Positions 10,150 through 13,342 are shown, counted from the first letter of the stretch. The stretch: DNA of 64,000 bases from Desulfobacterales bacterium (GCA_013375375.1 JABXJX010000002.1:1584-65583), one strand, 5' to 3'. A program made the numbers and translations. Notes: a model not told the origin generated them from the sequence alone.

Positions 10150-10226
<77 letters not shown>

Positions 10227-10347: not shown

Positions 10348-11325
10348 TTAGTGAGCAAGTTCTGACGTTAAAGTTACGTCTCCTGCCAAGACTCTCCGAA
10401 TCTTATCCTTCTGGTCCTTAACGATAAGGGCTCCGTCTTTGTCTATGTCCAATGCATATCCTACAAAAGAACCGCTCGCATCTGCTATCTTCACCCGAGA
10501 ATGGATGGTTTGATCCCATCGCCGCCAACGCTCTCTGAACGCCTCAAAGTTGGCTGTTTTGAATTCATCATAAAGGGCCTCTATGTTTGGCAAGATCCTC
10601 TGAACGAGCGTCCGCCGGCACACGGGATGGCCGGCCACCTCGGCAATGGATGTGGCAGTAGATCGAAGATCATCTGGAAACATGGATGCGGGTGTATTGA
10701 CGTTAATACCAATTCCCAAGATGATGTAATGGACCCTCTCTGGTTCCGCGCTCATCTCTACCAGAATGCCGGACACCTTCTTCCCTTCAAGAAGGACATC
10801 GTTCGGCCATTTTATCCGAGGTTGAAGGCCGGTGACCCGAGAAATACTCTCACAAATGCCGATCCCCATTACAATGGGTATCTGGGCAATGTTGAACGGT
10901 TCAAGGTCTGGTCGGAGAATGAGGGATAGATAGATCCCCATCCCTGGAGGGGAGACCCAGTGTCGATCCCTTCGACCCCTGCCTTCTGACTGTGCTTCGG
11001 CCACAACCAGGGTGCCTTCTTCTGCATTGCTTTCTGCAAGCCGCTTGGCTTCATATTGCGTGGAGGCCGCTTCCTCATGATATTGTATGGATCGGCCGAA
11101 AACATGAGTGGTAAGACCTGATTGGATCTCCTCAGGATTCAGAAGATCCGGAGCCTGTTCAAGGCGGTAGCCCAATCTGGGGGAGGAGTTAATTTGATAC
11201 CCCGCTTTGCGAAGATTCCGGATATACTTCCAAACCGCTGTCCGGGTGATGCCAAGGTTCTTAGCTATATTCTCCCCGGAGATGTAGGCACCCTCTCTCA
11301 GGCGTTTGAGGATTTCTCTCCGCAT
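10348..11325 (-). CDS. birA: bifunctional biotin-[acetyl-CoA-carboxylase] ligase / biotin operon repressor
   Basis: N-terminal wHTH (ISGENIAKNLGITRTAVWKYIRNLR), the GRGRRDRHW biotin-binding loop, and KWPNDV. Confidence 0.9.
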   Translation of the reverse strand: MRREILKRLREGAYISGENIAKNLGITRTAVWKYIRNLRKAGYQINSSPRLGYRLEQAPDLLNPEEIQSGLTTHVFGRSIQYHEEAASTQYEAKRLAESNAEEGTLVVAEAQSEGRGRRDRHWVSPPGMGIYLSLILRPDLEPFNIAQIPIVMGIGICESISRVTGLQPRIKWPNDVLLEGKKVSGILVEMSAEPERVHYIILGIGINVNTPASMFPDDLRSTATSIAEVAGHPVCRRTLVQRILPNIEALYDEFKTANFEAFRERWRRWDQTIHSRVKIADASGSFVGYALDIDKDGALIVKDQKDKIRRVLAGDVTLTSELAH

Positions 11326-11411: not shown

Positions 11412-11450
11412 GCTATTGTTAACCTAAAAATATTTTTGGTTGACAATAGC
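11412..11450. promoter_or_regulatory. BirA-operator-like palindrome overlapping a TTGACA -35 box
   Basis: GCTATTGTTAACC-N13-GGTTGACAATAGC has 13-bp arms with 1 mismatch. The half-sites resemble the TTGTAAACC/GGTTTACAA bioO type. TTGACA (11440-11445) sits inside the right arm, and CATAAT/ATAATC follows 15-16 nt downstream. Confidence 0.55.
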
Positions 11451-11500
11451 AGGCTTTTGTCATAATCCCCTTCAAGCTTATCCTGGAGGTAGGATTATAC

Positions 11501-13342
11501 ATGTGCTCAATGCGCTTAAATTGTGCAATTTTTTTATGTCTGCTTTTTGCTTACAATGGCCCTGTAATGGCACAAGAAGATCGTCCCTGTTACACATTAG
11601 ATCCGGTCGTGGTTACAGGGAGCCGTATCCTGCAGCACCTCTCAAGAATCGGCCGATCCGTTTCAATCATTGGTCGAGAAGAAATCGAGGCCGCGCCCGC
11701 AGACAGTATTGCAGATCTCTTGGAATACGTCAGCGGTGTGGACGTACGTCAGCGCGGCGTACACGGGGTTCAGGCCGATGTGGCAATCCGGGGTAGTTCG
11801 TTTGAACAAACTTTGATTTTGGTCGACGGCATCAATGTGAGTGATTCCCAAACCGGTCATCACAATCTGGATTTGCCTGTAAACCTGGAGGATATTGAGC
11901 GCATTGAGATTTTGAAAGGACCTGGGGCGAGAATTTACGGCCACAATGCCATGGCCGGTGTCATCAACATTATCACACGCGATGTTGAACGCAGTACTGT
12001 CGGCGGGTATGTGACATACGGTGACTACGATTATTATGATCTCGGTGCTCACGGGACTTTTAAAACCGGTGACATGTCAAGCCGAGTCTCAATATCTCGA
12101 CGTTATTCCGCAGGACATATCGAACAAGAAGAGACTGATTTTGATATCAAGACATGGGCTTATAAAGGTGCGATAAATAGGGGAGACCATAAATTTCAAC
12201 TGGGACTGGGATATACGGACAAGGATTTTGGGGCCTATCGCTTCTACAGCGACACATTTCCGAATCAACGCGAGCGGACAGATACCCTGTTAGCTCACAG
12301 CAGCGCCCATTTAAAGATGTCGGATTTTGAAGTAATGCCCAGAGTATTCTGGCGGCGCCATAATGATGATTTCAAGATAGAGATCAAAGGCGATTGGGAC
12401 CGAAACGAGCACCGAACCGATTCTTACGGGGTGCAAATAGGTTCCCGGTTTGAATCTGAATTGGGAACAACGGCCCTTGGAGGTGAAATCGCATTTGAAG
12501 TCTTGCAAAGCACCAACCTGGGTGATCACGACCGTGAGCGCAGCGGGGTATTTCTTGAGCACAAGTTTTATCCGGTTGAGTGCGTGACCCTTGGTCTTGG
12601 TGCTTCGGCAATGAAATATAGCGATTGGGGCTGGGAATACTGGCCGGGCGCAGAACTAAATGTTGAATTAATGGATGGATTCAATTGGTTTGTTTCTTCG
12701 GGAGAATCTTTTCGTATTCCCACATATACCGAGCTTTATTATTACACACAGGCAAACCAAGGCAATTCCGACCTTAAACCCGAACGGGCCTGGACTCACG
12801 AGACCGGTATTCGCTGGCGCGAAACAGGCCTTGGCGCTAATATCAGTCTATTTTCCCGCAATGCAGAAGATGTCATTGATTGGTCCCGCATTTCCGACCA
12901 GGAGCCCTGGAAATCGCGAAACATCGCTGAATGTAGGACTCAGGGGTTTGAAGTAGGTCTGGATTTTTATCCAGAGGCTTTTTTCAAGAAGACATTTGTT
13001 TCGGCTGTAAATCTTGCTTATACCTATCTGGACTCAGACTGGGATACAGGTGGACTTGAATCGAAATATGTTTTAGATCATCTGCGCCACCAGCTCCACG
13101 GTTCTATGATTTTAGATTGGTTTGACGGTTTGACGCATGACATCAAAGTTCGGCACGAGAAGCGAATGGTAGGGGATTCGAACGTTGTTGTCGATACGCG
13201 TCTCGCCTACAAATGGGCGGACTATGAGGTCTTTCTTGAAGCAACCAACCTGTTTGATGAGGATTATGTGGAATCCGGTTTTGCGCCTATGCCGGGCCGC
13301 TGGATTATGGGTGGCGTAAGGTTTAATATGGACTTTAAATAA
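11501..13342 (+). CDS. TonB-dependent outer-membrane receptor (BtuB-sized, 613 aa)
   Basis: A signal peptide is followed by the TonB-box-like DPVVVTGSR. Plug motifs are present (IEILKGPGARIYGHNAMAGVINI), along with barrel repeats and a C-terminal aromatic-rich strand GGVRFNMDF. Confidence 0.85.
   Translation: MCSMRLNCAIFLCLLFAYNGPVMAQEDRPCYTLDPVVVTGSRILQHLSRIGRSVSIIGREEIEAAPADSIADLLEYVSGVDVRQRGVHGVQADVAIRGSSFEQTLILVDGINVSDSQTGHHNLDLPVNLEDIERIEILKGPGARIYGHNAMAGVINIITRDVERSTVGGYVTYGDYDYYDLGAHGTFKTGDMSSRVSISRRYSAGHIEQEETDFDIKTWAYKGAINRGDHKFQLGLGYTDKDFGAYRFYSDTFPNQRERTDTLLAHSSAHLKMSDFEVMPRVFWRRHNDDFKIEIKGDWDRNEHRTDSYGVQIGSRFESELGTTALGGEIAFEVLQSTNLGDHDRERSGVFLEHKFYPVECVTLGLGASAMKYSDWGWEYWPGAELNVELMDGFNWFVSSGESFRIPTYTELYYYTQANQGNSDLKPERAWTHETGIRWRETGLGANISLFSRNAEDVIDWSRISDQEPWKSRNIAECRTQGFEVGLDFYPEAFFKKTFVSAVNLAYTYLDSDWDTGGLESKYVLDHLRHQLHGSMILDWFDGLTHDIKVRHEKRMVGDSNVVVDTRLAYKWADYEVFLEATNLFDEDYVESGFAPMPGRWIMGGVRFNMDFK

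Follow-up and report, generated by a model that had tools for sequence, protein, structure and literature searches.

Within a 64,000-nucleotide stretch of the genome of an uncultured Desulfobacterales bacterium related to sulfate reducers (GCA_013375375.1 JABXJX010000002.1:1584-65583; hereafter, the window), a gene for a predicted biotin-protein ligase and repressor, birA, and a gene for a TonB-dependent outer-membrane receptor are transcribed divergently from a region that contains a palindrome similar to the operators of BirA. The explanation that we favor, and consider probable, is that the receptor is repressed by BirA through an operator shared with birA and serves for the uptake of biotin or a very close vitamer; we infer both the repression and the substrate from sequence comparison. 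Through this receptor, biotin is probably scavenged actively, by a route that has not been described. The initial annotation of this DNA had put forward a candidate biotin-regulated outer-membrane transporter, and this proposal is supported by the operators found ahead of bioB in members of the same genus, by the conservation of the site on the receptor family, and by the gene content of the genomes. The divergent arrangement that it described was borne out as well, with birA on the minus strand and the receptor gene on the plus strand (Table 1).

The palindrome lies between the two genes and is composed of 13-nt arms with one mismatch, as we confirmed by reading positions 11412-11450. In an inverted-repeat search, the arms stretch to 19 nt with 89% complementarity and a 3-nt loop. 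The operator core, TTGTTAACC (11416-11424)-N13-GGTTGACAA (11438-11446), is an inverted repeat of TTGTAAACC-like 9-mers, and each of the two halves is one base away from the Escherichia coli-type consensus TTGTAAACC/GGTTTACAA, in agreement with what had been noted earlier. Both halves are identical to half-site variants published for Geobacter BirA sites (PMC545781 Table 1). The sites published for bioB are TTGTtAACC-N14-aGTTgACAA in Geobacter and acGTcAACC-N14-GGTTgACAA in Desulfuromonas (PMC545781 Table 1). The genome, a metagenome-assembled genome (MAG) of 2.18 Mb in 197 contigs that is 87% complete, was scanned with the pattern TTGTNAACC-N9..18-GGTTNACAA. The palindrome at 11412-11450 was the sole match with fewer than two mismatches, while about 0.005 perfect matches are expected by chance. 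Three matches with two mismatches were found, compared with roughly 6 expected by chance, and further BirA sites in this genome were therefore rejected, none being above chance level in the scan. Based on the motif shared with the birA/bioB regions of congeners and on the published Geobacter and Desulfuromonas sites, the palindrome is a predicted BirA operator. A second small inverted repeat, TGACAATAGC / GCTTTTGTCA, is present at 11441-11462 (10 nt, 90% complementary), where it overlaps the -35 hexamer and the promoter spacer.

To place the palindrome within its genus, we compared 37 genomes, in which the genome containing the window is denoted G000; the genus-mates include MAGs deposited as Desulfobacterales bacterium C00003060. 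The palindrome, with an N14 spacer, occurs in five other genomes of the set (G011, G012, G019, G022 and G023). In G012, G019 and G022, birA and bioB are divergent, and the site, which reads aTTGTnAACC-N14-GGTTGACAA, is situated between them; bioB scores 389-399 bits in these genomes (cut-off 225). A palindrome ahead of true bio genes, which the initial annotation had expected of a BirA operator, is thus found in 3/3 congeners that have bioB together with a BirA bearing the helix-turn-helix (HTH) domain; the genome of the window itself is without bio genes. In G011, the site lies between birA and an ortholog of the receptor, in the same arrangement as in the window, and in G023 it precedes the receptor ortholog, with birA on another contig. 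The six aligned sites share TTGT..AC...GTTGACAA, and the GTTGACAA arm, which gives TTGACA as the -35 hexamer, faces bioB or the receptor in all six. The corresponding ortholog promoters are TTGACA-16-TATAAT in G011 and TTGACA-17-TATACC in G023. Judged from this alignment, the operator design is homologous across the six loci. In the prototrophic congeners, bioB is followed by a gene for a FabZ-like hot-dog dehydratase (...DHFPGYPVVPGS; L028 (G012:C71) 2545-2868, and also L025 and L027), a pairing reminiscent of Desulfovibrio, whose BirA-regulated bio operon contains fatty-acid-type genes (PMC545781).

The presence of the site in the genus follows the presence of the repressor domain. A BirA that aligns from residue 1-10, and hence includes the HTH, is encoded in 7/37 genomes, namely G000, the five congeners named above, and G051, and the site is confined to genomes of this kind. 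The remaining ligases align from residue 51 or later, mostly 51-62, and the eight group-I ligase open reading frames (ORFs) that we read are 271-301 amino acids long, which leaves no room for an HTH; seven of these eight come from receptor-bearing genomes. The earlier suggestion that orthologous receptors should keep the site proved correct for all three genomes of the genus that have both HTH-BirA and the receptor (G000, G011 and G023). No site was found upstream of nine receptor orthologs from HTH-less genomes, which are all those with scannable upstream DNA. The closest orthologs (up to 80% identity) would lack the site because their genomes lack the BirA repressor domain. In a tree of the receptor, the site occurs in the Desulfuromonadales and Desulfobacteraceae branches of the Desulfobacterota clade (45 rows, support 99), so that its loss in the genus of the window looks secondary and goes with the loss of the HTH. 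In G051, the HTH-BirA (G051:C221:522-1451, L045) is part of a 601-amino acid ORF (622-residue open frame); this genome has neither bioB nor a receptor ortholog, and there is no BirA-like site near its birA. In G001, a genome in a single contig, the receptor ortholog is found in two distant pieces (G001:C1:937243-938370 and 1390259-1391101), the second of which borders on a stretch of N; the split looks more like a scaffolding error than a disrupted gene.

Outside the genus, a family search with one genome per species yielded 326 relatives of the receptor, of which 80 loci were kept. The site was sought in the 68 loci with at least 250 nt of upstream DNA, at a threshold of at least 13/16 within 430 nt before the gene. 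It was present upstream of the receptor in 25/68 loci, compared with 0/68 in each of two equal-sized intragenic windows and 1/340 in shuffled upstream windows. The site-bearing loci belong to Desulfobacteraceae (including Eth-SRB2), Desulfosalsimonadaceae, Desulfuromonadaceae, Planctomycetia and Omnitrophota, and receptor orthologs with the site were found in loci of Desulfobacteraceae, Desulfuromonadales, Planctomycetia and Omnitrophota. The variant cGTcAACC before the Desulfuromonas receptors is that of the published Desulfuromonas bioB site (PMC545781 Table 1). Five site-bearing genomes were sampled; all five encode a full-length HTH-BirA and none encodes bioB. In two Planctomycetia loci (L158 and L160), the order is site, receptor, bioY, with bioY 72 and 33 nt downstream of the receptor gene and Pfam BioY scores of 145 and 147 bits (cut-off 25). 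This gene context is the most direct link of the receptor to biotin. In Desulfosalsimonadaceae, the locus order is site, birA, receptor.

Several further observations were made at the loci outside the genus. In Desulfobacteraceae (L104, L106-L108 and L112-L114), a convergent exbB-exbD-tonB-like cluster, with a Pro/Lys-rich tonB and assigned by eye, lies about 0-2 kb downstream of the site-bearing receptor; the other conserved neighbors in Desulfobacteraceae and Desulfuromonas look, from their sequences, unrelated to transport. Among other sites in five genomes outside the genus, one is in a coding region and is probably due to chance, and one is ambiguous, as a control pattern also matched that genome. 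In the Desulfosalsimonadaceae genome with the site-birA-receptor order (G054), a second BirA-like site, CGTTAACC-N14-GGTTTACC (L181 (G054:C163) 1501-1528), ends 5 nt before the ATG of a gene for a 206-amino acid lipoprotein, which is followed by a gene for a beta-propeller protein. The lipoprotein may act as a partner of the receptor at the cell surface, or the site may have arisen by chance.

The distribution of biotin genes is consistent with a role of the receptor in biotin uptake. In the genome of the window, bioB, bioD and bioA were not found above their cut-offs and BioY was not found, and a protein with a biotinyl domain is encoded; the organism seems unable to make biotin. Among the 37 genomes of the genus, the receptor is present in 19 and bioB in 10, the two are never found together, and 8 genomes have neither (Fisher p = 1.3e-4, uncorrected for kinship); several of the latter are incomplete sisters of bioB-bearing genomes. 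On a tree of the ligase catalytic domain (BPL gene tree), which was used as a stand-in for the species tree, bioB-bearing genomes occur in at least five places among the receptor-bearing ones. Of 201 Desulfobacterales genomes sampled, each at least 85% complete, 70 had bioB, 9 had the receptor and none had the two together (uncorrected p = 0.029). With bioB missing from the other 131, most members of this order seem to be biotin auxotrophs. Overall, bioB is absent from the genome of the window and from all 29 receptor-bearing genomes tested. Desthiobiotin or earlier precursors would be useless to such organisms, which points to biotin itself or a biotin conjugate as the substrate.

The receptor has the features of a small TonB-dependent transporter. 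Its Pfam domains are Plug (residues 49-154) and TonB_dep_Rec_b-barrel (169-584), and an N-terminal hydrophobic leader and the motif LDPVVVTGSR (residues 33-42) are conserved in the family. The AlphaFold2 model (predicted local distance difference test score, pLDDT, 90.7) consists of a barrel and a plug, and its top match in the Protein Data Bank (PDB) is BtuB, with template modeling (TM) scores of 0.81-0.86 and 19% identity, which indicates a generic small TonB-dependent transporter fold. The top NCBIfam model is TonB-B12 (TIGR01779), at 158.6 bits against a cut-off of 599.7; NF007926 scores 119 against a cut-off of 836, and the heme and siderophore receptor models are likewise far under their cut-offs. 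The identity of a B12 receptor was rejected on the basis of these sub-cut-off scores and of the cobalamin riboswitch on another receptor. The sole cobalamin riboswitch match in the genome (C164:14741-15053, 69.5 bits) lies directly before a different TonB-dependent receptor of 711 amino acids, which extends from 15311 onward, and tonB is found on the same contig at 23439-23675. The C164 locus is probably the real B12 uptake locus of the organism. Riboswitch control of the receptor in the window was also rejected, as no Rfam match (E <= 0.1) was found upstream in ten loci, comprising its own and nine orthologous ones. Two TonB_C proteins above the cut-off are encoded in the genome.

The BirA protein contains HTH_11 (residues 2-54, E 1.2e-14), BPL_LplA_LipB (89-208) and BPL_C (276-317), and the biotin loop GRGRRDRHW is readable in its translation. 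It scores 210.7 bits with the NCBIfam model birA_ligase (cut-off 83.1) and 61 bits with birA_repr_reg, under the cut-off of 70. The promoter scan gave no convincing birA promoter on the minus strand, and autoregulation of birA is thus suggested by the layout of the locus. A tRNA gene (Rfam tRNA, 61.4 bits) is located at 10150-10223 of the window, about 125 nt downstream of the end of birA.

Table 1. Coordinates of the predicted features of the birA-receptor locus, counted from the first nucleotide of the window.
Feature	Position	Strand	Description
Predicted BirA operator	11412-11450	.	GCTATTGTTAACC (11412-11424), TAAAAATATTTTT (11425-11437), GGTTGACAATAGC (11438-11450)
Putative receptor promoter	11440-11466	+	-35 TTGACA 11440-11445, 15-nt spacer, -10 CATAAT 11461-11466
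Ribosome-binding site GGAGG	11485-11489	+	11 nt ahead of the receptor ATG
BtuB-sized TonB-dependent outer-membrane transporter, candidate biotin receptor	11501-13342	+	613 amino acids; Plug and barrel
birA, predicted bifunctional biotin-protein ligase and repressor	10348-11325	-	325 amino acids; N-terminal winged HTH

In the proposed mechanism, birA and the divergent receptor gene would share the operator. At sufficient biotin, BirA with biotinyl-5'-AMP would dimerise on it. Because the right half-site holds the -35 hexamer of the receptor promoter, RNA polymerase would be blocked there, and transcription of birA would perhaps be damped too, via a weak divergent birA promoter. Under biotin limitation, apo-carboxylases would use up biotinyl-AMP, BirA would leave the DNA, and the receptor would be made. 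The receptor, as a predicted 22-strand TonB-dependent transporter, would carry out TonB-driven uptake of biotin or a very close vitamer at trace concentrations, and this uptake across the outer membrane would serve an organism without biotin synthesis genes. The repression logic is carried over by analogy from the established E. coli BirA model.

The comparison with known systems shows both likenesses and differences. As in the window, a TTGTnAACC inverted repeat overlaps the promoter in the E. coli bioO/BirA system (bioA-bioBFCD) and in delta-proteobacterial BirA regulons (PMC545781, PMC5343134), where BirA is likewise a bifunctional ligase and repressor with an N-terminal HTH, and the divergent birA layout is also that of Desulfovibrio. 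However, the known BirA regulons consist of biotin synthesis genes or bioY, whereas the predicted target here is an outer-membrane TonB-dependent receptor. In the surveys of BirA regulons (Rodionov et al. 2004, PMC545781; Leyn et al. 2016, PMC5343134), the listed members are confined to bio genes, bioY and fatty-acid genes, with no TonB-dependent receptor among them. As the genome of the window is without bio genes, the receptor, perhaps together with birA, would be the whole predicted regulon. BioY, of the energy-coupling factor (ECF)-type biotin uptake systems, belongs to the BirA regulon in many bacteria, but it is an inner-membrane component, unlike the receptor; it stands behind the same site, directly downstream of the receptor, in the two Planctomycetia loci, and was found in none of the genomes of the genus. 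BtuB (PDB 1NQE/1NQH) resembles the receptor in its length of about 600 amino acids and its plug and 22-strand barrel, and it is a vitamin-specific receptor under vitamin-responsive control. This control is exerted by RNA, through the cobalamin riboswitch, while a protein repressor is proposed here; in addition, identity to BtuB is low, the TonB-B12 equivalog cut-off is not reached, and no cobalamin riboswitch precedes the gene. Thiamine receptors have been predicted from thiamine pyrophosphate (TPP) riboswitches, their function being deduced from the regulatory element. These predicted receptors and PqqU, the transporter of pyrroloquinoline quinone (PQQ), provide a precedent for TonB-dependent import of small cofactors (about 250-330 Da) whose size would in principle also allow passage through porins. 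PqqU (PDB 9C4O) is among the structural matches of the receptor, although its subfamily and ligand differ.

A number of observations weigh against a BirA-controlled biotin receptor. Regarding the DNA, the N13 spacer of the palindrome, which the initial annotation had already described as shorter than known, differs from the N14 of all five congener sites and the N14 or N15 of published sites, and a difference of one base from N14 alters the helical phasing of the half-sites; some Desulfuromonas receptor sites likewise fit best with N13. The TTGACA in the right arm, as had been claimed, is that of the putative receptor promoter, but the description of this promoter as the best sigma70 promoter was upheld only in part. 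Its -35/-10 spacer is short (15 nt), and it was not called by the scan, which accepts spacers of 16-18 nt only; a TG is found one base upstream of the -10 hexamer CATAAT. Regarding distribution, most orthologs in the genus (70-80% identity) are without the site, so that BirA control is not a constant property of the receptor, and the distant family members in Bacteroidota, Acidobacteriota and Zixibacteria are without a site that matches the pattern used here. The missing bio genes are not proven absent, since the genome is 87% complete. The compared genomes are kin, and the anticorrelation of bioB and receptor is not independent of phylogeny; the BPL gene tree offers only five independent contrasts, with which a sign test (p >= 0.25) cannot reach significance. 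BioY was found in 0/37 genomes of the genus and no inner-membrane biotin transporter was identified there; a conserved neighboring gene as such a transporter was rejected, none being common to 18 genus loci. Finally, biotin (244 Da) could pass porins, so that the case that a TonB-dependent route is needed is made by analogy.

Among the alternatives, the one that survives best, although we consider it unlikely, is that BirA does regulate the receptor but that the substrate is not free biotin. The receptor might instead carry a conjugate or derivative, such as biocytin, biotinyl-peptides or biotin sulfoxide, or a fatty-acid- or pimelate-type molecule linked to biotin-dependent metabolism. TonB-dependent transporters usually carry ligands larger than 244 Da, and BirA regulons reach fatty-acid genes in Desulfovibrionales. 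The gene neighborhoods of distant members without a detectable site are compatible with such a substrate as well. In Bacteroidales (L153 4881-7586 and L165), the receptor gene is followed by genes for a short-chain dehydrogenase/reductase (SDR) and a FadD11-like acyl-CoA ligase, and in L163 (4956-7280), it is followed by bioB and bioA, so that a precursor might be imported there. On the other hand, the absence of bioB from the receptor-bearing genomes tested would leave precursors without use, and the Planctomycetia operons pair the receptor with a biotin-specific inner-membrane component.

It is improbable that the operator serves only to autoregulate birA, with the receptor as a bystander that transports, for example, a metal chelate or a corrinoid. 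A site shared with a divergent, autoregulated birA is known in Desulfovibrio, the nearest orthologs (76-80% identity) are without the site, and the best-scoring models for the receptor are those for B12, heme and siderophores, all of them far under cut-off. However, this possibility, which the initial annotation had itself raised, cannot be the whole story. The gene for BirA adjoins the receptor in just 2/80 family loci, so that autoregulation cannot account for the site: it precedes the receptor without a nearby birA in G023, as it does in some two dozen loci from other families and phyla, and the arm with the -35 hexamer faces the receptor or bioB. The lack of a convincing minus-strand birA promoter, the location of the B12 riboswitch on another receptor, and the fact that receptor and bioB never occur in the same genome of the genus or the order sample also speak against it. 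Least of all do we believe that the palindrome is recognized by some other regulator, or forms a structural or terminator-like hairpin, and resembles bioO by coincidence: its N13 spacer departs from the canonical N14/15 and a hairpin could form from its 19-nt arms and 3-nt loop, but the motif follows the BirA HTH across the 37 congeners, precedes bioB in the prototrophic ones and occurs just once in the genome, and according to the window sequence and gene map, no T-run comes after it and no upstream gene reads into it on either strand.

Full-text searches of the literature revealed no TonB-dependent receptor placed in a BirA regulon, no biotin receptor of this kind, and no established outer-membrane route for biotin. 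Vitamin-responsive TonB-dependent receptors are a known theme, and the receptor of the window would be one under a BirA operator. Here, in Desulfobacterota, there is a clean contrast within one genus, in which bioB or the receptor stands behind the same operator and the site vanishes together with the HTH. In its broadest form, the proposal is that the family constitutes a dedicated high-affinity TonB-dependent biotin importer under BirA control, a so far undescribed B7 counterpart of BtuB that would be spread over at least four phyla, would provide the outer-membrane scavenging step in auxotrophic Gram-negative bacteria of sediments and seeps, and would in this genus be paired with an inner-membrane transporter other than BioY; we consider the case for and against this broader proposal to be evenly balanced. 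If a BirA-controlled biotin receptor is confirmed, biotin would join the short list of cofactors (B12, thiamine and PQQ) that are actively imported across the outer membrane, and the receptor with its site would mark, at the genome level, those uncultured bacteria of sediments and seeps that scavenge biotin. The retention of the BirA repressor domain in genomes that lack all bio genes would likewise be accounted for.

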